The position numbers were made by a program, and so were the translations under genes. A DNA stretch of 64,000 bases, taken from Blasia pusilla (Eukaryota). The stretch covers positions 32,612,001 to 32,676,000 of the forward strand of contig CM114271.1 in the NCBI GenBank assembly GCA_050084515.1, in the 5' to 3' direction. Position 1 is the first letter of the stretch; every line of letters begins with the position of its first letter. Shown one piece after another: positions 2,946 to 23,868 of the stretch. The notes under the pieces were generated by a model that did no database searches, was not told where the DNA came from, and saw nothing but the letters and a program-made list of their open reading frames with translations.

Positions 2946-4520
2946 AGCTCTTCCTCGACGTGGTGGTAGAGTACCACCACCAGCCAGAGGAGATGCAGCA
3001 GGAGCTCCAAAGCCAACACTTCTCTCACGCATCGATCAGTTGGAGCAGAGGATTGCTGCCATGACAATGATGCAACTCAAAGAAGGCAAAGAGCCGCGAG
3101 CAGCTAGTATGGCTCCAACTTCTACCTCTTACCGTGACCCGGGTGAGGATTTCGCTAGTATGGGGTTTATGTGTAGTGCAGCTAAGGTTGAGGTGGATGC
3201 AGTGGTGACTCGGGGTGCTACGAGAGGCACCGAGCCATCGAGAGGTGGAGTTGAGATTGACCCATTGGAGGGGACCGTGGGCGGCAGGCCACGGTTCCAT
3301 AGTCATTCACATTTTCGGAGGCACTACACACACCATCGATGGTGCCTCGACGACCAGCGGTGCCTACAGCTCACAAAGGTACGTCGAGCGTCATGAGGAG
3401 TTGGAGTGACAACTCCTATGTCGGCGCGAGTGGAGTCAATGTCAACCATAGTGGTGGAGGTGGCCACCAGAGTGAGTGAGACTCCACTATTTTCTGCCAT
3501 AGAGTTGGCGATGTTGGGAGTTGGACCATATGAGTTGTTCCGGCTGGCCGCCACATTGTGTGAGCGTGAAGAGGTGATTGCTTCTTGTTCAGAGGTAGTT
3601 GAGGAGGTGGTGGACTTGCCCTCAGAGCTGGTGCTAGGGACGCCCCCCACAAAGTCATGGCATGCGGCAACGGCGAAGTTGGTAGATATGCCAGCTCAAC
3701 CGGCCATAGAGCAAGGTGTGGTGACACATGGAGTAGTGTTACTGGAGTATTTCACTTGGTTAGTCCGACGGGGATAGTATACCATCCGCACCGTGTCCTA
3801 CTTGATTCGAGAGCGCACACCTTGATGTTAGGGAAGGTGGCGTGTTTAGCGTTGGGGTTACGGAAGGCCAATATTGAGACTTGTCCCTTCCAGATACAGA
3901 CCACGATTGGGGGCGTGTCACTCACGCAGTATATGACTCGATAGGAGATAGTTGTCAGAGTCCAACAAGAGCATGCGACGCATAGTGCTATGGTGCGCAC
4001 GTGTGCGATTACGATACCAGGTGATTCATACAATGTGTTGGTGGGAAGTATAGTGTTATATCCCCTAGGATTCATCCTTGACTTCTGGGAGGAGACCGTT
4101 GCTTATTGGCCTGGGTGGCGGTTAGGTGACGGGCGGATGAGTCATTTACTCGTGCAGTTTGCGGGACGAGGTGGTCGATCATCAGACGAGTCATTGACCA
4201 CGTTAACAGCTTTCACAAGTAGTGTTAGTTAGCCAGGAGAGTTGTTGGAGGGGAGCGCACATGCGGAGGATGTCCTTGTAGCGGATAGTCCCACGGAGAG
4301 ACAGGCCATGGCGGGTGTCTCTTCCCATGTTGGCGAGATCTCTTTACCATTGTGGGATACAACTCGAGAGCTATAGAGGAGTGTTGACGACCTCCTGAGG
4401 CAGGCGTGGACTCATGCCTTTATCTCGGAGCACTGAGAGTTAGGTGGTGATGGGGCTCCTGGAGTGGAGACGTTGATCCCACGAGATACCACACCCGTTG
4501 TGTGGCAGTGTCCAGAGGAG

Positions 4521-5435
4521 GGTGTTAGGGTGTTAGATCTCTTTGGAGGGATTTGCACCGGATTGGATGCAGTATTGCAGGCGGGCATACAGGTGCATCA
4601 ATACCTTTTAAGTGGCGAGTATCATTACGTCACGTGGCGAGATTGGTCCTGAGGTATCGTGAGTTGTTGCCGGTATCTGCAGTACGGGGATATCGGCATA
4701 CACTACCCGCCGACATTTCTTTGGTGGGGGCGCAGGATCTGGATAGAGTTGACACCATTCATTTGGTGATTGCTGGATGGCCATGTCAGGGTCATTCATC
4801 AGCTGGCCGAGGATTTGGATTGCAGGATCCAAGGTCAGGGATGTTTTGGGAGATACTACGAGTAGTACGACACTTGCATGAGAGTCGAACATATTCTCTA
4901 GCATACACTTTGGAGAACGTGCCATTGTTCGGAGACACTCGTGCACGTGTGATGACGAGTGTGCATCAGGTGAGGTCCTAGTTGGGACCTGATGTGTTGC
5001 TAGATGCAGCGAGAGTTGGATCACGTGCCCATCATCCACGACTGTGGTGGACGAACCTGATACCATCAGAGATACTGAGTCGAGCATACAATGGAGTCCA
5101 GAGAGCACCATATCTCACAGTGGATGCTATTTTGGGCTCATGGCGTCGATCTCAGGTGGTGACGTGGGATGATAGACCACCGTTGGCGATGGCCAATAGG
5201 TTGGGGGAGTTGAAGGCAGCCTTACCTACGTTGGTGAGCTTCCTAGCATCCCATGCCTTTCGTCAGGGAGGGCCAAGCATGATTTGGGATGAGGTGATCA
5301 GAGCATTGGAGGAGCCTATAGCAGATGAGCGCAAGCGCACCATAGGGTTTGCTAGCTACGGGTACTATGGCAGTGCTAGGTATGACTTAGGCATCTCGGA
5401 GACAAGTGTTGGGGCAGGCAATGGACCTCAACTGT
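4521..5435 (+). pseudogene. DNMT3-like C5-cytosine DNA methyltransferase domain in element B polyprotein
   Basis: Motif I VRVLDLFGGICTG; motif IV IHLVIAGWPCQGHS (catalytic PC); motif VI YTLENVP; motif VIII DAARVGSRAHHPRLWWTN; motifs IX/X ERKRTIGF...VLGQAMD. Frameshifted, with one stop. Confidence 0.9.
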
Positions 5436-8400
5436 GTCACATGGATAGCCTGCCTAGGAATGGCTGAGCAGAGATGGATGCGAGTGTCATATCTGGTTGG
5501 AGGACAACGAGAAGATAGCATTTTGGGGGATTGCTTGTATCAGTGGCAGTTCTTACCATTTGGGTTGAAGAACGCGCTTGTGGAGTTTCAGAGAGTGATG
5601 GATAGGATTTTGGCTGGCTTGGAGTTTGTACGATGTTACATAGATGATATTCTTATCTTCAGTTCCATGGTTGAGAAGCATGAGCGATACCTAGAGGAGG
5701 TTTATCATCGATTGCAGTTAGATGGATTGAAGTTACATCCAGGCAAGTGCATATTCTTTCAGGAGCAAATTGAGTACTTGGGACACACCATATACTCGAG
5801 TTGGTTAGGCGTTCAACAGACAAAGGTAGAGGCTATTGCATAGATTCCACGTCCTACAGATGTGAGTCGAGTCCGAGCGTTTCTTATATTGGAAAACTTC
5901 TATCGATGGTATGTCAAGGATTTTAGTGCGATAGCAAAGTCTTTGACCTTGTTGACGAGACTTGATCAGGTTTGGTTCTAGGGAGATGATCAGGAGCGAG
6001 CATTCCAAGAGCTCAAGGACAGGTTGACATCCTCACCCATTTTACAGAGAGCGGTTAGGGGTCGCCCATTAGAGTTACATACGAATTGGAGCATGTTGGG
6101 TCTAGGAGCAGTGATTACTCAAAGAGATGACAAGGAAAGGGAGTTTGTTGTGGCTTATGGGAGCCGATCGAACAACATTGCAGAGGCGAAGAACATCTCC
6201 TACGAGGTAGAGTGCTTGGCTGCTGTGTGGGCCATAGCACAATTTAGGTGCTATTTATTTGGCAACCCTTTCACACTTCTCACTGATCATCAGGCGTTGA
6301 GGTGGTTGATGGAGTCCGAAAAGCTTACGGGAAAGCTTGCTAGGTGGGTTGTATTACTACAGGAGTATGAGTTTGAGGTGGTTCATAGGCCTGGCCGGCT
6401 CAACCAAGATGCGGATGGGTTGAGTCGTAACCCATGTCCGAGTCAGAGAAATGACATAGGAGCTTAATGGCACGGAGAGAGTGATGAGGAGATGGTGCCC
6501 GGTTGGCATGCATCTGCCTATCTTTGTTGGTTGACTATGATAGGTGAGTCACAGGTGATGACTCTAGTGGTGGGGTTGGATGATGAGTCTTTGGATCCGG
6601 AGGTCAGTGGGAAGGTGACATGTGGTCGTCATATCCATGACGACGTGGAGGTTGTGGAACTCTTGCGCATTGGCGTCATAGCGAGCACAATGAGTGCTAG
6701 GGAGCGGGATCGGATCCTACAGCGAGCCAGGAGGTTCAAGTGGGAGGGGACTCATATTTTACGGGTATGGGGAGATGGTAGGATACGAGTGGTATCTCAT
6801 CCTTCCCAAAGAGCACGTGTAGTGCGACATGCCCATGACGAGTTGGGACATTTTGGAGTGAAGCGTACTTACAACTTATTCCTGGTTGAGTATTGGTAGC
6901 GCGGCATGCATACTCGGGTACAGCAGTTTGTGGCCAGATGTATGGTATGTGACAGAGTGCGATCATCCTTCAATGCTCCCACTCCGTAGTTACATCCTTT
7001 GTCGATTATGGGTTTAGATTATTGATGGAGTTTAGACTTTGCGGGACCTTTTCCATTGACGGGGCGTCATCATAAGTTTGTGTTGGTCATCGTGGAGCAT
7101 TTCTCCAAGTGGATAGAGTTGGTGGCACTACCGGACAAGGCGAGCAAGGGAACAGCTTATGCATTTCTAGATCGTGTGCTTAGTCACTTTGTTGCACCGG
7201 CAAAGGTGTTGACTGACCTGGGTACCGAGTTCAGGGGAGAGTTTCATGCCTTGTGTGATTAGACACTAATAGATCACCGCACCACGTCCAGAGATCATCC
7301 TGAGGCGGATGGGTTGGCGGAGAGAGTAGTATAGACAGTGAAGATAGGATTGCGCAAGTTTAGGGTTTAGGATTTCTAGATTATGTGCTTAGTCACTTTG
7401 GTGCACCGGCGAAGGTGTTGACTGACCAGGGTACCGAGTTCAAGGGAGAGTTTCAGGTCTTGTGTGATCACACACTAATAGATCACCGCACCACGTCTAG
7501 AGATCATCCTGAGGCGGATGGGTTGGTGGAGAGAGTAGTACAGACGATGAAGAGAGGATTGCGCAAGTATGGCTTGCAACGGGGATAGTTGAGGGAGTGG
7601 GACCTACAGTTGGCATGGTTGGCTATGGGTTATCGCTTTAGCCGGCAGGCATCCTTGGCGTCATTTTCACCATACTTTTTGCTCCTTGGGAGAGAGCGAG
7701 ATTTACCTACAGCTATTCGACGTGACATGGCGGAGCTGTTAGATCTTGATGATCCAGATGTGTGGGTATAAGCGTGTTCTCAGAGGGCGGAGATTTTTCG
7801 TAGAGTTATGCCTATGGCCTTTGAGAACTTAGCTATTGCTCACCATAGAGATATACTGAGGTACACGACCATTCGTGGAGGAGGTTATCGTCCAGGAATT
7901 AGCAGGTTTTATCATGGAGATTACGTGTATTTATAGCAGACGGCACCTACGATGCTAGATGTCACTGCAAGGCGCACGATCCTACATATTCACGAGGTAT
8001 TATGGACCGGAGTCCTCATGTTGGAGGGACGGGATGGTATGGTTTGGAAGGATCATATGCGCAATTGTGCACCATGTCATCTTTTGAACGTAGATGAGAC
8101 AGTGGATCTGCGAGGGGTACAACCACCATGTTGGTATGTGATGGTTATTCTTGAGGGTGGCATATATCATGTCTGACCCCCCCTCTTGATGTAGTTCCCA
8201 CAAGATAATGGATGTGTCCGAGATGTGTATAGGATAGTATGACATGTCAGAGAGATGTGATATTTTCTATCTAGAGTAGGGGGGATCCAACTGCCAGCTA
8301 GGGGGGCGGTTGTGTGATCTCAATGTATATGTACGAGTTAATTTCTGTACATGTGTGGATCTACCCGTGTGTGGGGAAGATCAATGTTGTGTGGTGTAGA

Positions 8401-8448
8401 TGTGACTAGCAATGTATGTTGTGTAGCAATATGTATGCGTACGACAGT

Positions 8449-9066
8449 TGTCACATCTGAGTAGCCGATAGGCCAAGATCTATCGTGGATAGGGCGAATT
8501 AGCCAGCGGACTATCTTGAGTCTAACTTTCTCCCATGGTGTCAAATGAGGTTGAAGATAGGTCCATTATGTCAGGAACGTTGTTTCTAACAACTTTCCTA
8601 TTGAGGTCTTTCACAACCGGGTGACTTATTGACCATGTCACCCGCCCCTGATAACCTATGCGCGCAGGTTACCAAGGGGATGGCTATTTTTAGGGGAAGA
8701 GCCTTTTAGCTCTTTCCCACCCTATATAAGAGAGGAAGATGGCTTTCCTAAGCCATCTTTCTCATGTTGGGCCATTGGAGCACGTGTCTTGTATGTGTCT
8801 GAGATAAGACTAGGGTGCTAGCGTCCGGATTCCTTGATAGCATAGGGTGGACGAGGCTCAATATGCCGATGTAGATTGAGGAGTGGAGTTTTAGGCCAGG
8901 TGTGCCATTTTTACTACTCTTTATTTTTGTTGTGTGATCTCCATTTATATGTACGAGTTGATTTTTTTACATGTGTGGATCTACCCGTGTGTGGGGAAGA
9001 TCGATGTTGTGTAGTGTAGATATGACTAGCGATGTATGTTGTGCAGCGATATGGATGCGCACGACA
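8449..9066 (+). repeat. 3' LTR of element B (family 2)
   Basis: tgtcaca...gcacgaca; TATA-like cctatataag near 8721; its last 138 bp are duplicated at 8309-8446. Confidence 0.8.
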
Positions 9067-12000
9067 CATTCAATTTGCAGACCTGTCAAAAGGGGGGCTA
9101 TCAAGTAGGGATAGATAGTGGAGATCCAATTTTCTCTGGGAGTTATTCTAGTTAAAAAATAAAAATTAAATTTGGTTGGGGAGGGGACAATGTCTATCCT
9201 ACCATGTCCTAGCTGATTGTCCGGGAGACGCGCAAACTGGATGTGGACTTGCTACCGCCGTTGTATGTTGTGTGGTTCGTCGACGCTTCAAGGCCCCTAC
9301 CCGATTTTTGAACTTGCCAAGAAAATACTGAGCCGCCATACAACCGTGTGCTGCTCCCTCTGACCCTACGTTACTACTGCCCGTAGAGCCAGACGTCTGA
9401 ATCTTTATCCTAGACCGCCGTGGCTGCATGTGTTCGCGGCTGGTCATTTGCATTTTTGGATTGATGGGGTCGCTTTGTTCCGTCCGCTTTGTTATGGTGT
9501 GATTTGTAGCCGCTTAAGGAAGATCGAGTACCACGCCGTGATGTTCGTAGGTGCAACGCGCCGCTAATTGGCGCGCCGTGCCGCTTGTGGCCGTACCGCA
9601 CAGTCTCGATCGTCAAGCCGCACCATCACTGGAGAGCATAGCGTGTATTGTTGTTGACAAGGGTATGCTGCTGAGTGACGCACCCTATTATCGAGTGTCG
9701 TGTTGTTCATAGCCGTTCTGTGCCGCGAGTGCCGCACTGTACCGCTCAACCCGCGCCGCACATCGAGGAGATTTGAGCATCGACTGTACCAGAGCAGTAC
9801 GACTTGCTACTTGAAGAGTTATCTTTACGGTCGAGTTGGGGTCGAGTTTCTTTAGTTGCTGAGGTGCGACATCGATACTTGTTGTCAGGCTACCCATTTT
9901 GGTTTTTTGCCTTGCACGTGTTAGGGATTTCCGAGTATTGTGCACTTATTTGGGGATATTGGGTTTCGTATTGATGTTGAGAGCATCATTGATGTATGGG
10001 TTTAGGGGACATAGGCCTGTGTGGGATCGATGAGATGATATGACAATAGACGATTTGCCACACGTGCCGCTTGTTCCGCACAACACACATCTCACTGAGA
10101 GAGTGTAGATTTAGTGCAGCATGTTGGATTGAGTGATTACTCACGAGATTGAGAGTGATCGTGTGAGAGGGACAGGAGGGTCATTACGGTGTCCTTTCAG
10201 GACTTTGAGAGGCAAGCTGGTGGACCTGAGAGTAGCTCTAGAGGGTTTACCCGGAGTGGTGCGAGGTTTCGAGAATCTTCACGTGAGAGATCACCTCGAT
10301 CTCCTTTTGTGTCGTCGTTAGACAAGGGGGAGAGTGTAGAGGAGTGTGCTAGTGATCCACGGCATACATTGAAAGGTCCTACAAGTTGGGCATACGAGAT
10401 GGACGATCGGGGTAGAGGACCGTGTAGGTTTTTGGGTGCTTTAGGCACTATAGAGCTACATGATTTCATGGCGGAGTTTAGGAGTTGGTGTGACTCATAG
10501 CGGGCTAGGAGCTCCAGAGAGTTCAACCTGTTTACAGCATGGGACGGAATGTTCCAACATTTAGAGGGGGCACCCATGGACGATTACCATGAGTTCTCGT
10601 AGAGATATGCCCATGAGATTGAGGCTTGGAGACTCTACTATGACCCACACTATGTCTCATGGACTGAATCATTTCCAAATGAGGAGGAGGAGTCATGAGA
10701 AGGTTCCTCCACCAGTGATGTTGTTGGAGGGGTGACTCGCACTAGAGCAATTGCATCATCCAGTCACTTCGTCCCAGGTTCAATCCCGTGGTTGATTTCT
10801 TCCCTGAGTTGAGGGCGAGGTACCTAGGGGTATGGATGGAGAAGTTGCGAAGCATCCAGGACTTCCAGCGGCGTCCGGATGAGAATTTGCGTGAGGCCTA
10901 TACACACTTGCGCCCGTTGATTAACGTCACTCAGGGGGTGACAGAGGCCTAGGCTATCCGTCATGGTACGCGATGCTCGATCGGACCCTGAGGACACGGG
11001 TGAGGGAGGGGATGCTTCTTATGAACACCTCCCCTACATTGAGAGATGTTTTTAGGACTGCCAAGAACATTGAGCGCAACATGGCAAAGGAGACCGTAGC
11101 CACCATGGGTTCTGGGCGAGAGCAGTCACAATTGCCTGCACCACCAGTGCAACAACGTGGATTCGGAGATAGGTCTCTGGCACCACGAGCTCAGGGAGGA
11201 TACCGGGAGGCCGTGCCACGAAGACTTGCGCCTTCATATGCGACTCAACATCAACCGCCTATGATTACTTGTTGGTTAGGTAATGGAGCCCATCATCAGT
11301 GCGATTGCACTCGTCACGATCATGGTCAGGTGCCTCGCCATGGAGGAGGAGATGGTGCTACACTAGGAGATTATCACTGTGACTATTTTCAAAGGTACGG
11401 TCACACACACGCGAGATGTTTCAGCTTGCACACTAAGTTACATTCGAACCGAGGGCCAGAGAGGGCACTAGAGCGAGTTGCAAGTCCGGGTGGGCCTAGA
11501 GGTCGTACACCATGTGGTCCCGTAGGGGGACGAGGAGTTGGATTTTCCCGAGGGGTTGGTGGAGTTTCTTGTGGAGGAGGTAGAGTCCCACCACCTAGAC
11601 ACATCGAGGGAGATGGCGGGCGTGAGGCTGGGATGGTTGATCAGATACAGTAGCTACAATAGTAGATTGCCGCTATGGCATTGAGGTTACCCGATGCCGG
11701 ATTCATGGCATCAACATCTTATGGAGCCGCAAGAGATATGGAGGATCCTCGTTGGATGTGCGGGGCTGCCCATATGGAGGATGCCGTAGTTGTTACGCGT
11801 CGAGCAGTCGGAGAGTTGGATCCACAGCGAGGGGAAGCCAACAAACAAACCTGGCTTCCTCAGTCCTTCGCGTTGTCCGAGGCGATGAGGACCCCATCGA
11901 TGGGTCTTGATCAGAATTCTCAGAGAGTTGGTGATGTTGTTGGTGTGCAAGCACGAAGAGCCATGGGATAAGCAAGTGCGATGACTTCTATTGCTGATGC

Positions 12001-13093
12001 TCAGGAGGAGCATGTGTCAAGCACGTTGTTGGGGGCGACCACTGTTGTGTATCGCGCTTCTTTATTTTTGCTTCCGATATTATGACGTTGGGAGGTATGC
12101 CCACCGAGGTTTTTTGGCTGGCCGCTACGCTATGTGAGCGTGGATTTGGAGTTCTTGCATCACGTTCAGAGGTGATTGCAGAGGAGGTGATGGACCTGCC
12201 CTTCGAGCTGATGCTCCAGCCGTCCACATCAGATTCTTGGCAGGTTTCCACTGCTAGGATGGCGGAGATGTCCGCTAGACCTACGATAGAGCGTGCCATG
12301 GCTTCTCCTGGTGTTGTTTTGCTAGATAACTGGGGAGAGGTCTTCCTCTTGCTGAGTCCAGGAGGTAGAGCATTTAAACCGTAGCGCGTCTTGTTGGATT
12401 CAAGAGCGCAACCCTTGATGTTGGGGAAAGCGGCATTTAGAGGTTTGGGCTTGACGAGGGTCGATATGGAGCGTTATTCATTTTGGATATAGACATCCTT
12501 GGGTGGAGCAAGTACCACATAGTATATCACCCGAAAAGAGGTCGTGGTGAGGATTTGCCTGGGACATCCTACACATGAGTCCGTGGTGCGAGACAAGGCA
12601 ATAGTGACTGATGCAGAGTCCTACGACATCTTGGTTGGTGGAGCAGTGTTGTACTAGATGGAGTTTTCCCTGGATTACTAGGAGGAGTCAGTGTTACACA
12701 AACCATGATGGTAGTCAGGTGATGGGCGCCTTAGCTCATTACGAGTTCAATTCTCAGATGCAGTGATCGAGCGCCGGCCAGGAGAGATGGCGACCTTAGT
12801 AGCGCCATCTCTTGGCCTAGTGATTTGATTGCGGAACATGTCCACACAGAGGATACTTATATTCCTGACATTTCTATGGAGAGGAGTGTCATGGTCGACG
12901 TATATTTCCGTGGAGGAGAGGTGCCGCTTTGGGGCTCAATTGAGGAGCTTTGACGCTTAGCCATTGAGCATGTGCAGATCGCGTGAAGCGAGACGTTTGC
13001 ACCATACCGTGACAGGTCAGAGGAACCCTAGGCGAGACTGCTATGATCACGCCCTTGGATACTACACCCATTGTATGGCGCATCCCAGAGGAG

Positions 13094-14020
13094 GGTATTC
13101 GGGTGTTGGATCTCTTTGGAGGGATCAACACTGGGTTAGTTGTTGTTTTGTACGCAAGAGTACGCGTGCAATAGTACATGTATGTGGAGATTGATGATGT
13201 CGCGAGGCGCACTTCACTTCACCATGTAGCTCAATTATGCCTCTCTTTTCCTGACTTGTTGTATGCGTCCGCTGTCCAGGGATACCAGAGTTTCCTACCG
13301 AGGGATATTTCATTTCTACGGGCGCAGGACTTGGATCGGGTAGGGACCATAGACTTGAACATTGTTGGTTGGCCGTGTCAGATCCAATTGAGTATTGGAC
13401 AAGATAGCGGGTTAGCTTACACGTGGTCCACGTTGTTTTGGGAGATGATAAAGATTCAGTGACATTTACATGAGCATCAGTCTCGTTCTCCAACATACAT
13501 TCTCGAGAATGTGCCAATTTTGGGTGATTCGAGGTACCGCGTGGTCACGAGTGCACATCAGGTGCGTGCATGGATCGGCACAGCAATGTTGTTAGATGTA
13601 GCGAGTGTAGGTTCTAGAGCACACCGCTCATGTCTTTGATAGACTAACTTGGTACCACACAAGGTATTGCAGAGGGCATATCCACGAGTGGAGTGCCCCT
13701 CCCAGTTATTGGGGGATTACATATTGGATCCGGACCATCAATCACAGGAAGTGAGATACGATGATCGACCGCCGTTGACTTGGGTCAACAAGATTGGCAT
13801 GCCACGGGCAGCCTTTCCCATATTTGTGAGTTTTCTCGCTTCCTATGTATTCAAGGAGGCCGGGCCTAACTTGGTTTGGGATGACCAAGTACAACGATTG
13901 ATGGAGCCCAATGCCGATGAGCGCGAGCGAGCGATGGGATTTCCCACATGAGTGACGGAAGTATCGTTACTGTTAGAGGCATCACGACTTCATGTCTTGG
14001 GTCAAAAGATGGACCTGAAC
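13094..14020 (+). pseudogene. DNMT3-like C5-cytosine methyltransferase domain in element C polyprotein
   Basis: IRVLDLFGGINTG (~13097-13135), IVGWPCQ (~13361-13381), YILENVP (~13496-13516), GSRAHR..L, ERERAMGFPT (13919-13948). Multiple disruptions. Confidence 0.88.
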
Positions 14021-17000
14021 TGCATGACATGGAATTTCAGCTGAGCAGTAGCGGAGTAGCGTCATTTGAGGATGCGACACATCTCAGCTGTTGCTTTGGT
14101 GAGCCCCATGCCTACCGAGACGGAAGAGGCAGTGGCTAGGGGCGAGACCTGAGGAGATCGACACACGATGGATGATCGGGAGAGACACCCTGGGACTTCT
14201 TGGGATGTTTTGCAGGTATGCCAAGAGATGATAGCCACAATATCGAGCATAGTTCCGAGTACTGCACGTGGAGATGAGAGTTTGCAGTTGGCTGTAGGAG
14301 AGCAGTCAAGTTCGATTGTACAAGACGGGGTTGCACCATAGCAGCCACCGACATCCGCGCTAGAGAGTGCTACTGTAGTCACGATGGAGGCTTGGGAGCC
14401 AAATATGGGCCCTAAGTTGACAAGAGGAGAGTGGCGCCGGATACACCAGTTCTTTAGGAGTTATAGGAGTTATTTTGCATTTAGTATGCAGGATTTGGGT
14501 ACGCTGAAGGGTCCATGGATCCGCATTGAGTTGTCGAGTGACACGCCGATCTTCCGAAGACCCTACAGATATAGTAACATAGAGAGGGCTTTGATTCAGA
14601 GTAGGAGCTAAGACTTGGTTGGAGCAGGATTAGTGGAGATGTTGCATGGAGAGTATACATCTGCCACTGTCATGCTCACCAAGAAGGATGTGTACGGCAA
14701 TTGGACGGATAGGTGGATGTGTGGAGATTACCGACCTATCAATCGGCAGAGGAAGTTCGATAGGTATGCCATTCCCACCCCTCAAGAGATCTTTGATGCT
14801 ATTGGGAATGCAAAGGTCTTCAGTTTGTTAGATCTTCAAGCTAGATACCATTAGTTGCCTATCAGATTGGAGGACAGGCAGAAGATGAAATTCCGGGGTA
14901 TCGATCCTCACAGGAAGGATTGCTTATACCAGTGGCGGTTCTTACCATTCGGGTTAAAGAACGCTCCAGTTGAGCTTCATAGGATCGTTGATAGGATCTC
15001 GGCACGTCTGGATTTTGCTAGGTGTTATATTGATGTTATCATAGTCCTTACCGCCATGGTTGAGGAGCATGCGCGACATCTAGAGGAGGTGTTTCGAAGA
15101 TTTCAATTATATGGGCTAAAGCTACATCCAGGCAAGTGCAAGTTCTTCTATGACCAGATTGAGTACTTGGGTCATACGATATATCGAGGTGGCCTTGGTA
15201 TGCAACAGATAAACATAGAGGCTATTCCATGCATTCCACGCCCTACAGATGTGAGTCGAGTTCGTGCATTCATGGGATTGGCGAATTTTTATCGAAGGTA
15301 CGTCAAGGGGTTCAGTTTGATTGATAAGCCGCTAACCTTTCTGACCAAGGTGAATCAGTAGTGGCATTGGGAGGATGAGCAAGAAAGAGCATTTCAGCTG
15401 CTCAAGGACATATTGACGTCCGTGCCCATATTAAGGAGAGCGATCAGGGGATGTCCATTCCAATTGCATACCGATTGGAGCATGTTGGGGCTTGGAGCCA
15501 TGCTCACCCAACATGAGGATGATGGTAGAGAGTTCGTGGTGGCTTACGCTAGTTGCTCAAGCAATGTTGTAAAGGCGGAGCATAGCTTGTGTGAGCGTGA
15601 GTGCTTGGCTGTGGTGTGGGTTGTTGCACATTTGAGGTATTATCTATTCGACAACCTCTTTACCATCATTACTGATAATCAGCCACTTAAGTGGTTGATG
15701 GAGTCCGACAAGCTTATAGGGAAGCTTGCAAGGTAGGCTCTTTTGTTGCAGGAGTATGACTTCCAAGTGGTGCATAGACCGAGCATGCTCAACTAGATGG
15801 TTTGAGCCGTAACCCATGCCTGAGTCAGCGAGATGCGACTAGAGCTTGTTGGTATGGTGAGAATGATGAGGAGTTGGTGCCAGGATAGCACGTGTCAGCC
15901 TAATTGGGCTTGTTGGTTATGGAGAGCCAAATTGACGAGACTTCGATGTCGAGGTCTGATGGAGAGTCCTTAGATCAAGAGGCCAATGAGGAGAAAACAC
16001 GTTGCCGAGACATTCACGATGATAGAGTGGTCTTGAAGTACCTATGTACTGGCAGCGTCGCAAGCACATTGGCTGCTAGAGAGCGGGATCGGATCCTATA
16101 GTGAGCTAGACGATTCCGGTGGGAGGGGACACATGTGTTGCAAGTTTGGGAAGATGATAGAGTGCGTGTAGTGCCTCATCCTTTGCACAAAACATATTTG
16201 GTGCGTCATGCCTACGAGGAGTTGGGTTATTTTGGAGTGAAGCGAACATATAGCTTGTTCCAGATACAATATTGATGGCGAGGTATGCAGAGTGACGTTC
16301 GGGAGTTTGTTGCCAGGTGCACGATGTGTGATCGAGTCTGAGCATTGTTCAATGCTCCAACTCCTTAATTGCATCCACTTCCAATCATGGATTTAGGGTC
16401 TTGGAGATGGAGTTTGGATCACGATGATGGAGCGGTCTTGAGTTTTTTCAGAGACTGATGCCCATGGCGTTTAATAACTTGGCAATTGTGCAACATTAGG
16501 ATACATTGAGGTATGCGACTATTGGGGGAGGTGGTTATCAACCTACTATCCAAAGGTTTCATCAGGGAGACTATGTTTACTTGTAGTAGACGGACACATA
16601 TGACGTTGGATATGACTGTAGGGCGCACCATCTTGAGAGTGCGTAAGATTTTGCAATATGATGTTCTCTTATTGGAGGGACGTGATGGTATGGTTTGGAA
16701 GGACCATGTGCGTAATTGTGCGCCATATCATCTTTCGAACATTGATGGTGCACTTGATCTGAGCTTAGTAGTAGTCCCTACAAGCTTGCAATGTATGTTG
16801 TATGGTTCTGCTCATGGTGCAGCCACTATGCTAGTCAATGATGGATGTTCGAGAGGATGGCATATGGCATGTCTGACGCCACCTCTCACAAGGGTTCCTC
16901 ATAGACGATGGATGTGTCCCAGATGTACATGGAGTAGGTAGTTCCACATTTCGACTTGTGTTTGTGACATGGATGACAAGAAGGCGACTAACGGTGGGGC

Positions 17001-17242
17001 CACATGAGCACCCTGCCTTCTTGCTCTTAGTGCCTGAGAGATGTATCTCATGGTAGGTAGGGATAGATGGCTATGTGGAGTTCGAGGGACCTAACCATCA
17101 TCTAGGGAGGCGATTGGAGATATTTTGGTACTTCTTGTCTCGTTTTTTTGATGCCATGAGTTAGCATGGGATGGTGCGTGTTTGCGTGTGTGTTCAGTGA
17201 GAGTGATGTATGTTGTGTAGCGATGTGTATACGCACGACAAC

Positions 17243-17869
17243 TATCATGTCTTTTAGGAAAGATCGGTGAGATCTAGTGAAGGGCTTTCTTGAGTAGTGG
17301 AGGACAGGCTCAATAAGTCGAGGATGACCCGTTGAGGCTTCGGGAAATCTGAGAGAGCAGGTTTTCCCTTCGTTGCGGCTCATTTGGAGCCATATAGATA
17401 AACTTACTATTTTGGGTAAGCTTCCATGTTATGTATAGTTGGATTTCTACTTTGGGAAGTGACCCTTGACCCGCTACATCAAGTCAAGAGTCAAGGAGGT
17501 GACCTGCAAACACAGGTTACCAAGGAGAGAGCTTGGGAGAGGGAAGGGGGTATACCTTCAAGAGGGAGAGCTTGAGAGCTCATTCTCTCTTTATTGAACC
17601 TCTTGGCACGAGGCGGCGGAGCTATAGTCCCTTGTCTTGTGAGTGTAATCCAAGCCTCTTATTTGGAGAGTGGATTTGGTTTGACATTAAGAGAGATATG
17701 TGAGAGTGCAAACATTTGAGAGCTATTGGATCGCATTTTAATTTGAGATATTTTGGTACTTTCTTGTCTCGTTGTTTGGATGCCATGAGTTAGCATGGGA
17801 TTGTGCGTGTTTGTGTGTATGTTTGTCAATACCGATGTATGTTGTGTAGCGATACGTATATGCACGACA
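17243..17869 (+). repeat. 3' LTR of element C (family 1)
   Basis: tatcatg (mutated TG start)...gcacgaca; homologous to 2330-2945 and to the reverse complement of 39046-39643. Confidence 0.85.
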
Positions 17870-17983
17870 TCGACCACCATAGACAATACCTCTCATTATA
17901 GTTTTAGCCCTCTGAACTTCTACTTGGATTTGAATCAAATGGTTATTAGAAATTATTAAACAAGCATAACAAATTAGATACGG

Positions 17984-17988
<5 letters not shown>

Positions 17989-18031
<43 letters not shown>
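17989..18031. repeat. (CT)n microsatellite
   Basis: Pure dinucleotide run. Confidence 0.97.
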
Positions 18032-18036
<5 letters not shown>

Positions 18037-18042
18037 CTACCA

Positions 18043-18300
18043 TGGAGGACAAAATTTTACAATAAGAAGATGAGTGGAGACTAGTCCCCTTCTCAATTAT
18101 ATAAGATATGGACAAACAACCCTAATCCTAATCCTAAACATAATCTTGAGTTATACTAATTATGGTTAACTAACCCTAGTTAAGATAATCATGGTTAACT
18201 TACTTATCATGATTAAGTTTTCATACTTCGTGTGAGTACCAAAATATTGCAATTCGTGTGTATGATGATCATGAGCTTGAATATAACTTATTCTTCAATA
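18043..18300 (-). repeat. Copia H 3' LTR
   Basis: Adjacent to the PPT; alignable with 32377-32622. Confidence 0.7.
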
Positions 18301-19377
18301 CTCCCCCTCAAGCTTATGTCAATATCTCTATTATCTAAATCATTTTAAAAATATCTCTAACTTATTTCCACACAATACCTTGGTAATTAAAATGTCAACA
18401 ATTTGTTGATCTGTACCTATATACATAAGAGAAATTTCTCATGCAAGCGTTTTCTCTTAGATAAAGTTGTAATGAACCTCAACGTGCTTTCTTCGAGCAT
18501 GAAACATAGGGTTATTAGCAAGGTTGATACTACTAATATTGTCTGCATATATTACACTAAGTACCAAGTTACTAACACCAATCTCAACAAGTAATCGATG
18601 GAGCCACACCACCTCATATGTTACCTTGGTTACTCCTAAGTACTCTGCCTCTGTAGAAGATAAAGCAACCTCGAAACCAACTATAGGTTGCTTCTTTAAA
18701 GCCCAAATTTATAACTACGCTTCCCAAGATGAAGGAATCACTAGATGTAGAGTGTCTCTCATACATATTTTCTACCCAAACAACATTTGTGAATCCTCCT
18801 TATTGTAAACTTGGAGAAGGTTCAAATTGAAGCCCAAACTAAACAGAGAATTTCACATGCCGCAAAATCCTCCTTATAATATAAAGATGAGGTTTTTTAC
18901 ATGTTTGCTTGAATTGGCTCACTAGGCCAAATGCGTAGCTCATGTTCAGCCTCGTTATACTCAGATAGATCAAACTTTCAACCATATACATATATATATT
19001 ATAGAATCTGAAAGCAACTCTCCTTTATATATTCTTAGGTTCACACTCTGGTCCAAATGTGAGGTTTCCGAGATGCTTGTATGAATTGGCACTCTAGGCC
19101 AACTATGTAGCTCAAGTTTGGCCTAGTTATAGTCAGATAGATCAAACTTCCAACCATACACGGTACATATTACAATATGAAAGCAACTCTCCTTCATCAA
19201 CTCTTACGTTCACACTCTGATCCAAAAGTGTAAAGATTGGCTTGCAAGTTGTCATACAATATTTTGAAAGCCTGTGAAGACCATATTTTCGGTGTAATAA
19301 CCACAAGCTCTGTCCAATCCTAATAAACTCAAGACCAAGGAAGTGTTTCAGTTCTTGTAAGTCCTTCATATCAAATT

Positions 19378-19808
19378 TGTCATGACCATACGGATTATGT
19401 CGTAGAGTATAGTGTGCTAGTAGAGGCCATACCTTATGTAGGGCCGCAGTGTCTAGGTAGAGATGCGATTTCATACATAGGGTTGGGGGTTACTCAGTTG
19501 AGGGAGCTTTCAGAGGGCCGCTCTCGAGGTTGGAGGATATAAGGTGGAGTGCACTCAAAGAAACGATCGATTCTTTGAGTTGAGCCTGTTGCGTTGGGAG
19601 TTAGCCTTGGTAGTGAGTAGAGCTCTTGGCTATGGTGTTTCCCGCAAGCTTTGACCTACATTCTCCCATCGTGGAGTGGGTTTGGCTCGATTGTATGTGA
19701 TTCTACACGTGTTTTATGACAGTAGGTCTTTCACGAATTTCAGTTCTTGTACACTTGTGTTTGTGGATGCTCTCGTCTATGTTATGTATGTATGTGAGTA
19801 TGGTATGT
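19378..19808 (+). repeat. 5' LTR of element D (lacks the last ~40 bp present in the 3' LTR)
   Basis: Starts tgtcatgacc; matches 28450 onward up to ...agtatggtatgt, then diverges. Confidence 0.88.
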
Positions 19809-21004
19809 TGCTGAGGTTCCTCTTGCTACTTATATTATGATCTCATGTGAAGCTATTTGCTCGAGTGTGTGGAGCGTTGCGGATTTTTGCGTGCATGAAA
19901 CTAGGCGGAAGCGCTGTCGGATTTGCGATTCTGGAGGTGTATGGACAACAAGTTTGTCTGATTTTTACTCAGAGTACAGATCTTGGTGGTAGCTGATTTT
20001 TTGTGGAGAGATAGCTATGGTGGTCAATTGAATTTTGGTCGAAATAGATTTGATTTTGGTCACGGATTTGTGAAGTAATTGCTGATCGAAATTTCGCAGA
20101 CTAACTCAAGGTCTGGCTATGGTGGACAGCGGATCGGAGGGGCTCGTTGGTTGGTGACTCACATTGTTGGAGATGCCTATCCTGTTTGGGGCGCCCTGGT
20201 TGGGCCTCTCTCCATGGCGAAGCTTGGCATGTCTCGGTGTTTTGAGGCTTCGAGGCAACTCGTGGTAGCTCGGGGCGAGTGGGCGTGAGGGGCGGAGTAA
20301 GGAGCAAGGAGCAAGGAGCAAGCAAGCAAGCTTGCTTGGGCGCAAGGAAATTTTTGTAGGATTTGTGATTTGAGTGTTGCATAACTGGTCACCCATCTTT
20401 GGGCTATTCTGCCTTGAAGACGCTTAACTGCTAAGTTCTTAACTATGCCAGTGTACACACTGTTGTAGCTCATTTGGTGCTCTTCAGAGATGTGTTAGGC
20501 GCTTTATGCATCTCAGGTTTTTGGTTGATGTACCTCTAGCGCATAGTACGGTGTAGCCTCTCCATGCAGGTGATATTTTCAGGTGTTGCGAGTTCGACTA
20601 GCACGTCATCGACCCGCGGCGGAGTAGCTATTGCGTTAGAATTGTGTGGTGGTTTTGTGGATTCAGGGGGCGCCACGTTTGTGGATTGTGTTACCTTGAT
20701 TTCCATTTGCAATTGGAGGGTTGTCGTTGGACTTCCTGTGTTTGGATCCCCTCCATCGTTGCTTCTTGCTTGCGCGCCCATTGTTAGGGTTGACGCTGAT
20801 TTCCAGAGTAGTGTCACTCCTGTGTGCTACCGATAGTGAGGCTGGAGTGATGACCAGTAGACCGTAGGTGGCTTCTTGTGGTGATGACAGGTTAGGTTGC
20901 CTACACCCATAGCTAGTAGAGCTAGAATAGTATAGTGACATCGACGTCACTTGGTTACTTAGTGGTGATAATTTGGTGGTGGTGCGGCATCGGCGTTGGT
21001 CATC

Positions 21005-22545
21005 ATGGAGTTGTCGGAAAGTCTGGTTGGGGACCGTGGTGCGGACAGTGGTGGTTTCACACGGAGTGGATTAAGGTATCGGCTACCTTTTCCACTTCCG
21101 ACGGTTGATGAAGAGGAGGACGAGGGTGTTACAAACACCGAGTCTTCTACGTTGTTATCGAGTGTTGCAGCTCCATTGATTTGGGACATAGACGAGATAT
21201 ATGGGGCCATGAAGGGCCCACGATGATACTCGGGTGCAGTGGGCACCATTGAGTTGGAGGACTTCATGCATGAGTTTGATACGTGGTGTGATATGCAGAT
21301 GTTACGGAACGCCACGTTGTTTACATCCTTCTTGGCTTGGAAGGGATTGTTTCAGCACTTGGAGGAACCACCCATGGATGCTTACCATGAGTTTAGGAAG
21401 GACCATGTTGCTGAGATTGAGGCATGGAGACAATATTGGTCTCCAAGCTATGTGTCTATCACCCATGGTGGTATTGGTAGTAGTGCTCCTACTATGCCAG
21501 CCAGCCCGACGTTGAGTGGTACGAGTACGAGCCGGAGTGGGAGTACCAGTGGAGGTACCCATGGAGGTACCAGTGGGGGTACTAGTGGAGGTACTAGTGC
21601 CCCACCATCGTTTAGCCGGGTTGCAGAGTTCTTCAAGAGGTTGAAGAAGAACTATCAGGGAGTGTAGACAGAGAAGTTGAGAAGTCTTCAAGAATTTGAG
21701 TGAAAAACTGGTGAGAGTCTTTGTGAGACATACACTCGTATGCGACGCTTGATTTCAGTTACCCAAGGTGTGACTGAGGCTCAGGAAATCCAGTTTTGGT
21801 ATGGGATCTTGGACAGAGAGTTGCGCCGCAGGGTACGTGATGCTACTCTTATGAGTGATGATTCACCCACATTGACCCATGTGTTTGCTCTTTCTGAGAA
21901 GATTGAGCTTAACATGGTAAAGGAGAGAGTGGGGACATCCGCATTCAATAGGGATACAACTACTACTTCTCGTGTTCAGCAGCCCACCTCACAGTCTCGT
22001 AGTAGTGTTGGTGGTAGTAGTAGTGGGAGTCGTGGGGGGTACACGCGACCTCAGTCAGGTCGTAGAGGGACACTTGCGCAGAGACCATTTCCTTCATTTC
22101 TGCTTGCAAAGAAGGACGATCATGTTGGACATGTGGAGGTGATCATGTTAGGAAGTTTTGTCCCCAAGAGGATGGAAGACGGACTTTGGAGGATGGACCT
22201 CAGTTGGCCCCAACTCAGTGTGATCATTGCGGGAGACCAGGTCATCCTCGAGAGCATTGCTTTGATCTTCATCCAGAGTTGAGATCAGGCCGCGACCGTG
22301 GTGGAGTAGCTCCGAGAGGCCGAGGTGGTAGAGGTGGTAGGGGTGGTAGAGGTGGACCAGTGGTTGGAGAGCCTATGGTGGCTACCCCTACCACTACGAA
22401 TGAGCCAGCTATGGTTGCCAAGATTGAGCAGTTGGAGCAGAAGTTGGCTACTATGGTGGTATCCAAAGATAGATCGGGTTCGGGAGCACGGGCTTCCACC
22501 TCTTATGGAGGGATGATCTCTCTTATATGGCGAAAGATAGGTTGA
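21005..22545 (+). pseudogene. Gag of element D
   Basis: GTIELEDFMHEFDTWCD, YTRMRRLISVTQGV, CCHC knuckle CDHCGRPGHPREHC, RGG repeats; homologous to the gag of C and E. Confidence 0.82.
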
Positions 22546-23133
22546 GGCATTGGGCTGCGATTCGAGAGGAGCCACGAGGCGTCGAGCCACGTGGTGCTCT
22601 TGTGGAGTTGGACCCATAGAGGGTCGAGGCGGGAGGCGAGCTAGGCTTCCCAGATCATTCTTGTTGTCTAAGGTGCTTAGGACTCCATCCATGGTTCCCG
22701 CGAGCCTATTGAGCCCGAGTGGGGATCGAGGCATCTACATTGCATGTAGTAGACACGGATGCAAAGACATCGGCGATATTGTGGATGGCAACTTCGGTGT
22801 TGGGATCCCCATTGTTTTCGGCCACGGAGCGATGGCTTTAGTCGTTGACTTAGCTCTGTGATTTCAGCTAGCGACCACGTTGTGTGAACGTGGGGGTATT
22901 ATTGCTACACGTCTTTGAGGTGGATGAGGGTGTTGCAAAGTGGGAGCGACCCTCTATGTCATGTGTAGCATTGAGTACCGGTGCTACTTGGCGGCGGCAA
23001 AGGCGGGAAGATGGATGCATTACGGCCGGCCGACCATTGATCGTGAGAGGCTTACACCTGGTGTATGTATGTTGGACAACCGGGTGGGATATTCGATTGG
23101 TGAGTCCTACAGACAGGTGTATAGACCAGATAG

Positions 23134-23430
23134 AGTCTTGTTAGACTCGGTGCCCAACCTTGATGTTGGGAAAGGCGGCATGTATTGGTTTGGGTATTCG
23201 GAGGTCAGAGTTTGAGCCTTCCCCATTCCAGATTCAAACATCACTTGGAGGAGCCAATGATAGGTCTCAATTCATGACAAGGGAGAAGTTTTCTGTACAG
23301 TTGAGACCAGATCATGCGACTGATAGCTCCCGGTTGGGAGTACCTGCAGTGGTCACATCAGCCGAGTCGTCTGATGTACTAGTTGGAGGAGCAATATTGT
23401 ACCCGATGGGTTTTCAGATGGATTACTAGA
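23134..23430 (+). pseudogene. Aspartic protease of element D
   Basis: VLLDS(G) active-site motif with a frameshift, flap-like IQTSLGG, and DVLVGGAIL. Confidence 0.75.
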
Positions 23431-23868
23431 CTGAGACAGCGTCTTATAGACCTGGTTGGCAGTCCGGGGATGGACGTATGAGCCAAGTTCCTGTGAGATT
23501 TATTTATGGGGCTCAACAAGGAGGGTCTTCCCCAACAGTGTTAGCATCTGTGGCTGGTTTTAGTGGAGTAGTCACTTGGCCATAAGACTTTTTGGAGGGT
23601 AATGTTTTTGCTATGGATTCTCCTGTGCATGAGCAGATAGAGGAGGTCCCTATTTTTGCAGTAGTGGCATCCTCATCGTTGGATGTGCCACTTTGGAGTT
23701 CAGGCGGTGCACTACGGCAGGAGGCTGATCGCCTAGTGCAGGAGGCTTGGTGTGAGGCTCTTATACCTCACGAGGAAGAGGAGGCCCCACGGCGGACTCT
23801 TACTTCTAGTCGATTAGGTTATCCCCTTTGGATACTACACCCATTGTATGCAAAAGATATCTGCGGAG

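Follow-up and report, generated by a model that had tools for sequence, protein, structure and literature searches.

A probable gypsy-borne relic of a DNMT3-type methyltransferase in the bryophyte Blasia pusilla

A stretch of Blasia pusilla DNA (GenBank assembly GCA_050084515.1, contig CM114271.1, positions 32,612,001 to 32,676,000 of the forward strand; 64,000 nucleotides, referred to below as the window) contains a region that resembles C5 cytosine methyltransferases (DNMTs). This raises the question of whether the region belongs to a host gene or to a mobile element, and from which class of methyltransferases it comes. A sequence-only reading had placed a non-permuted, DNMT3-type enzyme at 4521–5435. 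According to our analysis, 4461–5498 is very probably the decayed methyltransferase domain of an old, 5'-truncated element, here called copy B, from a bryophyte family of Ty3/gypsy LTR retrotransposons.

The domain was mapped by tblastn with the DNMT domain of the intact Marchantia homolog P0090 as the query, which gave three forward-strand pieces with a joint E of 1.3e-111. The N-terminal piece (4461–4607, frame 3, 63% identity to P0090) carries motif I 'LDLFGG' and the start of motif II. The main piece (4616–5350, frame 2, 65% identity, 245 aa) holds motif IV PCQ within LVIAGWPCQ (4763–4789), motif VI ENV (4913–4921), motif VIII 'AHHPR' after 4997 and motif IX 'ERKRTIGF' (5327–5350), and the C-terminal piece (5358–5498, frame 3, 62% identity) comprises motif X 'VLGQAMDLN' (5406–5429) and the following helix. 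The domain overshoots the originally proposed span at both ends. All four strings on which that proposal was built occur in the window, but the first, VRVLDLFGG from 4524 onward, lies in a different frame from LVIAGWPCQ, ENV and LLDAARVG (from 4997 onward). With an E of 2.5e-9 for Pfam PF00145 on the middle fragment alone (37.4 bits, cut-off 22), the match of copy B to C5 methyltransferases is far above chance; the open reading frame of a further copy, D, reaches 21.9 bits, slightly below the same cut-off.

Since the three pieces lie in alternating frames, the domain contains two frameshifts, and an in-frame TAG is found at 4979–4981. The Cys and Gln of PCQ and the whole of ENV are retained, and the suggestion that copy B keeps its catalytic residues holds for the Cys of PCQ and the Glu of ENV. 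It fails at motif VIII, where in the string 'SRAHHPRLWWTN' a His replaces the first arginine, a position occupied by Arg in 72 of the 75 rows of the family. A Cys-Glu-Arg-x-Arg set in an open frame is consequently absent. Two frameshifts, the TAG and the Arg to His exchange together make copy B a pseudogene, unable to produce an enzyme. As a dead copy, it performs no function itself.

The surroundings of the domain were assigned from open reading frames, translations and Pfam. Three gypsy-DNMT copies (B, C and D) and the 3' end of a fourth element (A) are present in the window, all on the forward strand. In this family the polyprotein runs in the order gag, protease, DNMT, reverse transcriptase (RT), RNase H, integrase and PHD finger, which places the DNMT between protease and RT of a Ty3/gypsy pol that also includes RNase H and a DDE integrase. 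Element A (1–2946) retains RNase H, integrase and a PHD finger (Pfam E 9.4e-12, in the open reading frame 1672–2094), followed by a repeat pair at 2200–2328 and 2818–2946. Copy B begins with a truncated gag end and an aspartic protease region (2947–4232, also by comparison with P0090), in which the motif has decayed to 'LLDSRAH' compared to 'LLDSGAQ' of intact homologs. Downstream of its DNMT follow RT with 'YIDD' (5391–5843), RNase H (5982–6467), the zinc-binding domain and core of the integrase (from 6468) and, seen in translation, a degraded PHD finger (about 8140–8250), with matches to PF17917, PF17919 and PF17921 across 5391–8250. Its 3' terminal repeat region (8309–9066) contains a 138-nt repeat at 8309–8446 and 8929–9066 with 91% identity.

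The DNMT of copy C (13040–14071, 55% identity to P0090) lies in a single frame with many stops. Element D (19380–28923) is the youngest and most complete copy, with gag, protease, DNMT, RT (25066–26220), RNase H, integrase and PHD finger. Its DNMT (23819–24846) is interrupted as well, the N-terminal part (23819–24097) being in another frame than the longest open frame (24031–25065), and motif IV has decayed from PCQ to SCR. The 5' repeat of element D (19380–19808) recurs at 28452–28882 with 96% identity, and in the 3' region (28341–28923) a 108-nt repeat is found on each side of 28452–28882 (28341–28448 and 28816–28923), which gives the DIRS-like arrangement A-coding-B-A-B. A paired 3' repeat is present in all four copies.

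Beyond the window the family is large, with 391 clusters at E<=1e-30; the best 150 representatives are all family members with at least 206 bits. All 17 organism-named rows among 89 matches come from liverworts or Sphagnum, and the name Klebsormidium is on none of the family matches. Longer forms were found 14 times in Marchantia polymorpha and once in Sphagnum fallax; apart from element polyproteins, the family profile retrieved among longer forms just one DIRS-like protein and a Leishmania protein (E 1). The motif IV Cys is conserved in 71 of 72 rows, the Glu of ENV in 75 of 77 and the two motif VIII arginines in 72 and 71 of 75. Ratios of dN/dS (0.20–0.22 for DNMT, 0.09–0.18 for RT, 0.13–0.14 for RNase H) indicate purifying selection on the family.

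Two pol layouts have to be explained. The bryophyte elements described here show protease-DNMT-RT, whereas the commoner relatives in public data show RT-RNase H-DNMT-integrase. Separate gains of the DNMT by the two kinds of element would agree with the tree, in which 33 of 33 RT-DNMT or DNMT-integrase rows fall in one clade of 36 (SH-aLRT 95) and 8 of 8 DNMT-RT rows in the opposite group of 30, and with a between-group DNMT identity of only 33–38%. The rows were sampled at 25 of 47, 8 of 30 and 10 of 83 in three classes, and the group of 30 has a support of only 86% and draws in two long-branch rows. Against separate gains, the backbone is common to both layouts: in each, a PHD finger follows the integrase, and the C-terminal sequences of the integrases resemble each other. 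Both DNMT groups also keep A-H-R-x-R-x-x-W-T-N and G-x-A-M-D and are together split from phage rows. Because of this shared backbone and these motifs, one capture plus one relocation within pol is the simpler account, and we consider two independent gains unlikely.

The methyltransferase is of the non-permuted C5 kind, and among solved proteins the animal enzymes DNMT3A, 3B and 3C (2qrv, 6w89, 6u8p, 8tci) stand closest to it both by sequence and by fold. They are the best solved-structure matches of the single open reading frame, the family profiles and the predicted fold, in agreement with the assignment made from the letters of the window. The copy D frame matches DNMT3A with E 1.1e-7 (M.HaeIII 0.09); for the homolog P0003 the scores are 44.8 bits for DNMT3A, 20.9 for DRM and 17.7 for HhaI, and for an 18-sequence family profile 56, 28.7 and 28.5 bits, respectively. 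With a 78-sequence profile, DNMT3A (98 bits), DNMT3C (89) and DNMT3B (88) are followed by tobacco DRM (59), Arabidopsis DRM2 (51.5), HhaI (40), HaeIII (31) and DNMT2 (29). In the PDB lists of the 18- and 78-sequence profile searches, no match to DNMT1, CMT (ZMET2), MET1 or DNMT5 was obtained at E<=10.

Profile stretches 68–112, 145–270 and 355–396 align in the same order with DNMT3A residues 8–52, 68–185 and 245–286, confirming the non-permuted course from motif I to X, and the DNMT3 motifs that the sequence-only reading had cited appear in the tool alignment of the family profile with DNMT3A. Shared features are A-H-R-x-R-x-x-W-x-N-L in motif VIII (His in 70 of 75 rows), E-R-x-x-G-F-P in motif IX and a short target-recognition region, at an overall identity of only 19–25%. 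Motif IV counts against the DNMT3 assignment, with PCQ in 40 and ECQ in 28 of 72 rows compared to PCN in DNMT3, and motif X reads G-x-A-M-D instead of G-R-S-W-S. Plant DRM enzymes (Arabidopsis DRM2, tobacco DRM), at 51–59 bits the second-best eukaryotic class by profile, fit the element domain locally (rmsd 1.5 over 115 residues, 24% identity). They are, however, circularly permuted (motifs VI–X before I–V), so that family motifs I–IV match the C-terminal end of DRM chains, while the element domain is not permuted.

A comparison of a predicted structure with DNMT3A, proposed as a check on the original assignment, was made with the homolog P0003, which shares 64% identity with D and about 50% with B and was folded in place of the broken sequences of the window. 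A first AlphaFold model from a shallow alignment of 53 rows (pLDDT 55.8) was not used; the final model shows a pLDDT >90 over residues 1–330. In Foldseek, the listed rows in ranks 1–50 are all DNMT3A/B/C (best E 9.3e-20, target-normalised TM 0.80–0.82), compared to E 2.3e-16 and TM 0.54 for the best viral model. VIA-align gave Z 27.9 for DNMT3B (rmsd 2.7, 269 aligned) and 26.5 for DNMT3A, followed by M.MpeI (24.5), HhaI (21.9), DNMT1 (18.3), ZMET2 (17.6) and MET1 (17.4); the class separation by fold is thus modest, with 27.9 versus 24.5 for a bacterial CpG methylase. Both by sequence and by fold, the domain is closer to DNMT3A/3B than to any other solved class of C5 methyltransferases. Membership in the DNMT3-type class is supported by these score rankings and by the published tree, in which the Klebsormidium element DNMTs group with Dnmt3 (de Mendoza et al. 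2018, Nat Commun 9:1341, PMC5890265).

In its domain context the element enzyme differs from DNMT3 genes. By Pfam, no PWWP or ADD domain is found beside the DNMT in family polyproteins; the domains recognized around it are limited to the zinc knuckle of gag, RT, RNase H, integrase and the PHD finger. The expectation that host regulatory domains are absent therefore stands for the neighborhood of the DNMT and has to be corrected for the polyprotein as a whole, which carries the PHD finger after the integrase. Animal DNMT3 genes encode PWWP and ADD as N-terminal reader domains, as the solved full-length chains show, and plant host DNMT3 has a plant-specific N-terminal domain. Instead of forming a stand-alone gene with N-terminal reader domains, the element domain sits in the pol frame as part of a retrotransposon polyprotein, unlike animal DNMT3A/3B/3C.

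The likeness to DNMT3 could also reflect common descent of three groups, if the source of the element's enzyme was a 'DNMT3-like' C5 methyltransferase of phages or bacteria and not a host DNMT3. A tblastn search with P0003 at E<=10 retrieved 851 phage records, of which the best reach 76–85 bits and 26–32% identity. Five short phage enzymes (from Pseudomonas phage Epa40, Roseobacter phage CRP-9, Cellulophaga phage phi18:3, Vibrio phage 1.148.O and Enterobacteria phage ECGD1) reach 70–83 bits with the 78-sequence profile and 45–52 bits with the 18-sequence profile, compared to 98 and 56 for DNMT3A. Their own best solved match is DNMT3A/B, too (137 bits). In the longer-form search with a profile of these five enzymes, the best 120 of 3002 matches were all phage-like fused methyltransferases. 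They share with the element a 'VLSLFDG' motif I, the motif IV PCQ with D-P-R-S-x-L-F after it, R-x-R-x-Y-W-T-N and the short target-recognition region. The ESM Atlas clusters nearest by features, two mostly viral and one from Streptophyta (all 0.96), serve as a lead only.

Several observations speak against such a donor. Both family profiles score DNMT3A/B/C above every phage enzyme tested. In the reverse direction, a phage profile gives the element domains only 25–88 bits, below HaeIII (106), HhaI (103) and DRM (86–91), and phage and element groups are therefore not specially close; moreover, DRM exceeds HhaI in the element profile, while HhaI exceeds DRM in the phage profile. In motif VIII the element family carries Ala-His (A-H-R-x-R) like DNMT3A, whereas the phage enzymes, which are stand-alone genes, carry Gln-Asn (Q-N-R-x-R). 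In a tree confined to element, phage and plasmid rows, the five phage sequences are set apart from every element row by a branch with 100% SH-aLRT. No close relatives turned up when viral contigs were scanned with a single protein. Together with the published position of the Klebsormidium element DNMTs beside Dnmt3 (PMC5890265), this makes a phage or bacterial source improbable; capture from the DNMT3 lineage of non-flowering plants, as suggested by the sequence-only reading, is a possible origin.

Expression was examined in three RNA runs, of which 6–12% each was read and reads were counted at >=97% likeness. Under these conditions the copy B DNMT has an RNA depth of 0 in all three runs. The element D region shows a DNA depth of about 25–50 per orientation in most bins, compared to about 0.1–5 over copies B and C, and an RNA depth of up to about 10, nearly all in one mate orientation. 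Since the RNA reads over D bear fixed differences from D, they derive from sister copies. The organism also contains a younger, transcribed subfamily present in multiple copies. In the sequencing-run index no RNA run was listed, and the DNA runs listed had small shares of <=0.20. That the region could be a functional gene of the host or a methyltransferase that has been domesticated, as purifying selection on the domain family and the relatives annotated as Marchantia gene models might suggest, can practically be dismissed in favor of retrotransposon debris in view of the two frameshifts and the stop in copy B, the gypsy protease and RT flanking its DNMT in the same orientation, its lack of RNA reads in the three runs and the equally broken DNMTs of copies C and D.

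A DNMT-bearing gypsy element is already known from a green alga, and the bryophyte case is an extension of it. By its published description, KnitGypsy-Dnmt3 of Klebsormidium nitens is the closest precedent: a non-rearranged, Dnmt3-related DNMT within a gypsy LTR Pol with key catalytic residues kept, Ka/Ks < 0.2 (0.20–0.22 for the bryophyte family DNMT) and, as in element D, DIRS-like terminal repeats of the form A-coding-B-A-B (PMC5890265). The hosts differ, a charophyte alga there and a land plant here, and the survey table of that paper includes no liverwort and no Sphagnum (PMC5890265). SymbioDIRS-Dnmt3 of Symbiodinium likewise has a DNMT3-type domain in a retrotransposon pol; it is, however, a DIRS element with a tyrosine recombinase (PMC5890265), whereas the bryophyte family has a DDE integrase. 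A protein with DNMT, RT and tyrosine recombinase, P0130, which we assume to be the Symbiodinium element, matches the family profile with E 2.7e-7 and 27% identity.

In intact members of the family, the protease would cut the DNMT domain free of the polyprotein. The enzyme would then bind SAM via motifs I–III, and the PCQ Cys would attack C6 of a flipped-out cytosine, which may be held in place by the Glu of ENV together with the arginines of motif VIII. The outcome could be de novo methylation, with newly made cDNA of the element or the surroundings of the insertion site as the most likely target. It would probably occur at CG, a step that we propose from what the DIRS-borne DNMT3 of a dinoflagellate did in yeast; for the enzyme of Klebsormidium, the yeast assay had no clear outcome (PMC5890265). 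Integration would probably be steered by the PHD finger at the integrase tail, through its reading of a histone H3 tail.

In a full-text literature search we found no paper describing DNMT-bearing gypsy elements in bryophytes and none citing the Marchantia gene models Mp4g09160, Mp8g17980, Mp6g11220, Mp2g26090 and Mp8g15430. To our knowledge, DNMT-carrying retrotransposons have so far been documented in dinoflagellates and one charophyte alga. A 2026 preprint mentions 'streptophytes (Gypsy-DNMT3)' in passing. Tentatively, and with slightly less than even confidence, we propose that liverworts and Sphagnum carry a large, still transcribed gypsy lineage with its own DNMT3-type enzyme between protease and RT (in most public relatives between RNase H and integrase), that this module either moved within pol or was captured twice, and that it could add to de novo methylation in bryophytes. 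DNMT-carrying retrotransposons put a silencing tool of the host to their own use; should their wide distribution, diversity and expression in bryophytes hold true, such elements would be placed inside the land plants. Counts of 'DNMT3 genes' in bryophyte annotations would then have to be treated with caution, as they would include transposon copies, and tractable hosts such as Marchantia would become available for probing what the enzyme does for the element.

The first 29 kb of the window, a stretch of eukaryotic DNA, consist of stacked, related Ty3/gypsy elements on the + strand, designated A to D. Their pol order is gag, protease, C5 cytosine methyltransferase (DNMT), reverse transcriptase (RT), RNase H, integrase and PHD finger. 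In copy B, the end of gag and a protease region with a degraded active-site motif lie upstream of the DNMT; downstream come RT (5391-5843) and RNase H (5982-6467), both +, then the integrase and a PHD finger that is degraded (about 8140-8250, +). The DNMT of copy C (13040-14071, +) contains many stops, and that of copy D (23819-24846, +) carries one frameshift and SCR in place of PCQ. Element D is the youngest copy in the window. Of element A, at the window start, the 3' part alone is visible, with a PHD finger at 1672-2094 (+; Pfam PF00628, E 9.4e-12) that looks intact; those of C and D are found at 16510-16941 and about 28030-28170 (both +). The PHD finger after the integrase occupies the position of the chromodomain in chromoviruses. 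Most of the long family members in public data have it too, and one of them carries a Tudor domain in addition.

A sequence-only reading had described the copy B domain as a non-permuted DNMT3-type enzyme with retained catalytic residues. All four peptide strings named there were found in the + strand translation: VRVLDLFGG... from 4524, LVIAGWPCQ at 4763-4789, ENV at 4913-4921 and LLDAARVG... from 4997, the first in a different frame from the other three. As reference we used the DNMT domain of intact P0090 (Marchantia polymorpha Mp_4g09160), a protein of 1278 aa with gag, protease and DNMT. Copy B matches it in three pieces on the + strand, at 4461-4607 (frame 3, 63% identity), 4616-5350 (frame 2, 65%, 245 aa) and 5358-5498 (frame 3, 62%), with a joint E of 1.3e-111. 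The domain, with its alternating frames 3/2/3, therefore contains two frameshifts, and an in-frame TAG is present at 4979-4981. Pfam PF00145 matched the middle fragment with E 2.5e-9. The claim on catalytic residues holds in part: in the 78-row alignment of the family, copy B retains the whole of ENV and, in PCQ, both Cys and Gln, but it reads His at the first motif VIII arginine, a column occupied by Arg in 72 of 75 rows. The copy B DNMT is thus a pseudogene, though the original observation is real.

Profile comparisons and structure prediction identify the element domain as having the C5 methyltransferase fold and motifs like those of DNMT3. DNMT3A, 3B and 3C topped all searches of element DNMT queries against solved structures. 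The copy D ORF matched DNMT3A with E 1.1e-7 and M.HaeIII with E 0.09; the public homolog P0003 gave 44.8 bits for DNMT3A, 20.9 for DRM and 17.7 for M.HhaI, and a profile of 18 family rows gave 56, 28.7 and 28.5 bits, respectively. With the 78-row profile, DNMT3A (98 bits), 3C (89) and 3B (88) were followed by DRM (tobacco 59, DRM2 51.5), M.HhaI (40), M.HaeIII (31) and DNMT2 (29). This profile aligns with DNMT3A in three collinear stretches, corresponding to motifs I-II, III-VIII and IX-X, whereas in DRM the C-terminal end of the chain matches the N-terminal motifs of the profile. The domain is therefore not permuted, as had been proposed. The motif VIII pattern A-H-R-x-R-x-x-W-x-N is common to the element family and DNMT3A, with the His present in 70 of 75 family rows.

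Structure prediction, suggested earlier as a check, leads to the same class. An AlphaFold model was computed for P0003, a homolog from outside the window, from the 78-row alignment, with pLDDT > 90 for residues 1-330. In Foldseek, all matches listed among ranks 1-50 were DNMT3A, 3B or 3C chains (best E 9.3e-20, target-normalised TM 0.80-0.82); the best viral model was weaker (E 2.3e-16, TM 0.54). Against 48,161 representative chains, VIA-align ranked DNMT3B (Z 27.9) and DNMT3A (26.5) ahead of M.MpeI (24.5), M.HhaI (21.9) and DNMT2 (about 20-21), with lower values for DNMT1 (18.3), DNMT5 (17.8), ZMET2 (17.6) and MET1 (17.4). In the published tree, Klebsormidium element DNMTs form a divergent clade related to Dnmt3 (PMC5890265).

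A special link to short phage C5 methyltransferases was also considered. A tblastn search of phage genomes with P0003 returned 851 records at E<=10; its top matches had 76-85 bits and 26-32% identity. Five phage enzymes reached 70-83 bits on the 78-row profile (DNMT3A 98) and 45-52 on the 18-row profile (DNMT3A 56), and a phage-enzyme profile likewise found DNMT3A/B as its top solved match (137 bits). That profile, however, scored only 25-88 bits on the element domains, below M.HaeIII (106) and M.HhaI (103), with DRM at 86-91, and it placed M.HhaI above DRM where the element profile has the reverse. Moreover, the phage enzymes carry Gln-Asn at the position of Ala-His in the elements and DNMT3A, and a branch with SH-aLRT 100% separates the five phage rows from all element rows in a 73-row maximum-likelihood tree. 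These points argue against such a link. The phage enzymes concerned (L001-L005) are short and show the DNMT3-like motifs VLSLFDG, Y-x-A-S-E-I-D, R-x-R-x-Y-W-T-N and L-G-N-G-W-T-V; some metagenome annotations name such proteins 'DNMT3A'.

Inside the pol polyprotein, the DNMT domain is kept by selection: among the three copies of the window dN/dS was 0.20-0.22 in the DNMT, 0.09-0.18 in RT and 0.13-0.14 in RNase H, with dS saturated at 1.4-2.3. For the organism to which the stretch belongs, raw reads were mapped to 4300-24299 at a likeness of at least 97%, drawing on 6-12% of each of three RNA runs and on about 1% of one DNA run. Over the copy B DNMT (4300-5633), DNA depth was about 2-4 per orientation and RNA depth was 0 in these portions of the three RNA runs; the remainder of B and C showed DNA depths of about 0.1-5 per orientation and RNA near 0. 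Element D (18974-24299) was covered by DNA at about 25-50 per orientation in most bins (lowest about 4-5), and by RNA to about 10. At this likeness, the DNA depth of the D-type subfamily is roughly ten to forty times that of copies B and C. Nearly all RNA reads over D have one mate orientation, which means sense transcripts if the libraries are stranded as usual. The reads show fixed differences from D and share a loose end at 23946, translating to the usual family motif where D has diverged; upstream of this point the other copies differ from D, whose motif I-II region is scrambled. The fixed differences and the loose end therefore assign the reads to sister copies within an expressed multi-copy subfamily.

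Scanning 1.84 billion representatives yielded 7373 proteins at E<=0.001, of which 1296 reached E<=1e-10 and 391 reached E<=1e-30. Among 89 near-length matches, all 17 organism-named rows came from liverworts (Marchantia, Riccia, Calypogeia) or Sphagnum; longer forms comprised 14 Marchantia polymorpha gene models and one from Sphagnum fallax. Across the family, the DNMT occupies one of two places in pol, either between RNase H and integrase or, as in the window and the Marchantia models, between protease and RT. Of 25 long representatives examined by Pfam, 22 show the order RT-RNase H-DNMT-integrase, in most cases with a PHD finger behind it; two share the window's order (zinc knuckle-DNMT-RT), and one is unplaced. 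A local seed search sorted all 281 DNMT-bearing proteins collected into 41 RT-DNMT-integrase, 32 DNMT-integrase, 6 RT-DNMT, 8 DNMT-RT and 6 DNMT-RT-integrase forms, and in the other 188 it recognised the DNMT alone. P0124, P0122 and P0136 are among the public relatives bearing on the two positions.

For the quick 73-row tree, element rows with enough domain coverage were used: all seven covered DNMT-RT rows, 14 hand picks, among them rows from named organisms, and random draws from the other three classes (25 of 47, 8 of 30 and 10 of 83). Copies B, C and D of the window, the DIRS-like protein P0130 (DNMT-RT-tyrosine recombinase) and six outgroup rows from phages or plasmids were added. All 33 RT-DNMT or DNMT-integrase rows fall in one 36-row clade (SH-aLRT 95%), and all eight DNMT-RT rows in the other group (n=30, 86%). 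Window copies B, C and D group with rows from Marchantia, Sphagnum and Calypogeia in a clade of 14 (99%). Two long branches, those of the DIRS-like protein and of an enzyme from a cyanobacterial plasmid, fall inside the 30-row group, a placement flagged as unreliable.

The 5' repeat of element D (429 nt, 19380-19808) has a second copy, 96% identical, at 28452-28882, and a 108-nt repeat stands on both sides of this 3' copy (28341-28448 and 28816-28923). Such a paired short 3' repeat (108-138 nt, spacing 475-629 nt) is present in all four elements, whose 3' repeat regions are 2200-2946, 8309-9066, 17113-17870 and 28341-28923 (all +). In D, the stretch from the first to the second short repeat inclusive matches the 429-nt 5' repeat. 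A G-rich tract directly precedes the first short repeat of D. The arrangement equals the A-coding-B-A-B order given for KnitGypsy-Dnmt3, gypsy elements of Klebsormidium (PMC5890265). The layout of element D is DIRS-like, though its integrase is of the DDE type.

All four elements (1-28900) show a strong coding-strand skew (G about 30%, C about 19%, T > A) and a CpG observed/expected ratio of 0.65-0.70; the ratio in the window's genic part is 0.87. Related fragments lie on the - strand at 38407-40578: a tail 76-89% identical to that of element A (39046-39643), an adjoining gag-like ORF (38407-38814) and a nearby leader-like stretch (39896-40578). Candidate copia-type RT fragments (41738-42277 and 19142-19489, both -) were recognised by eye from translations; the DNA near them includes AT-rich stretches (30-38 kb, GC 30-36%) as well as GA-type simple repeats translating as 'RE' runs. 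A host gene fragment at 53393-54952 (+) encodes a zinc finger of the SHI/STY type (Pfam DUF702, E 1.2e-28), a domain characteristic of land plants and in keeping with a bryophyte host.

In intact copies, the protease may release the DNMT domain from the polyprotein, and the released enzyme would perform de novo cytosine methylation. Its likeliest target would be the new cDNA of the element or the insertion site, most likely at CG. For a DIRS-borne DNMT3, de novo CG methylation in yeast is described in PMC5890265, where the result for the Klebsormidium enzyme in yeast is given as inconclusive. By analogy to chromodomains, the integrase-tail PHD finger probably steers integration via histone tails; PHD fingers in retrotransposons have been noted (PMC6673714). 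Copy B performs none of these steps.

The kind of element is already known, as KnitGypsy-Dnmt3 was described in 2018. The survey table of that paper (PMC5890265) includes Physcomitrella and Selaginella and lists no liverwort and no Sphagnum, and a 2026 preprint mentions 'streptophytes (Gypsy-DNMT3)' merely in passing. Full-text literature searches turned up no description of DNMT-bearing gypsy elements in bryophytes. What is modestly new is that land plants harbour and express these elements, and that the elements come in two pol layouts.
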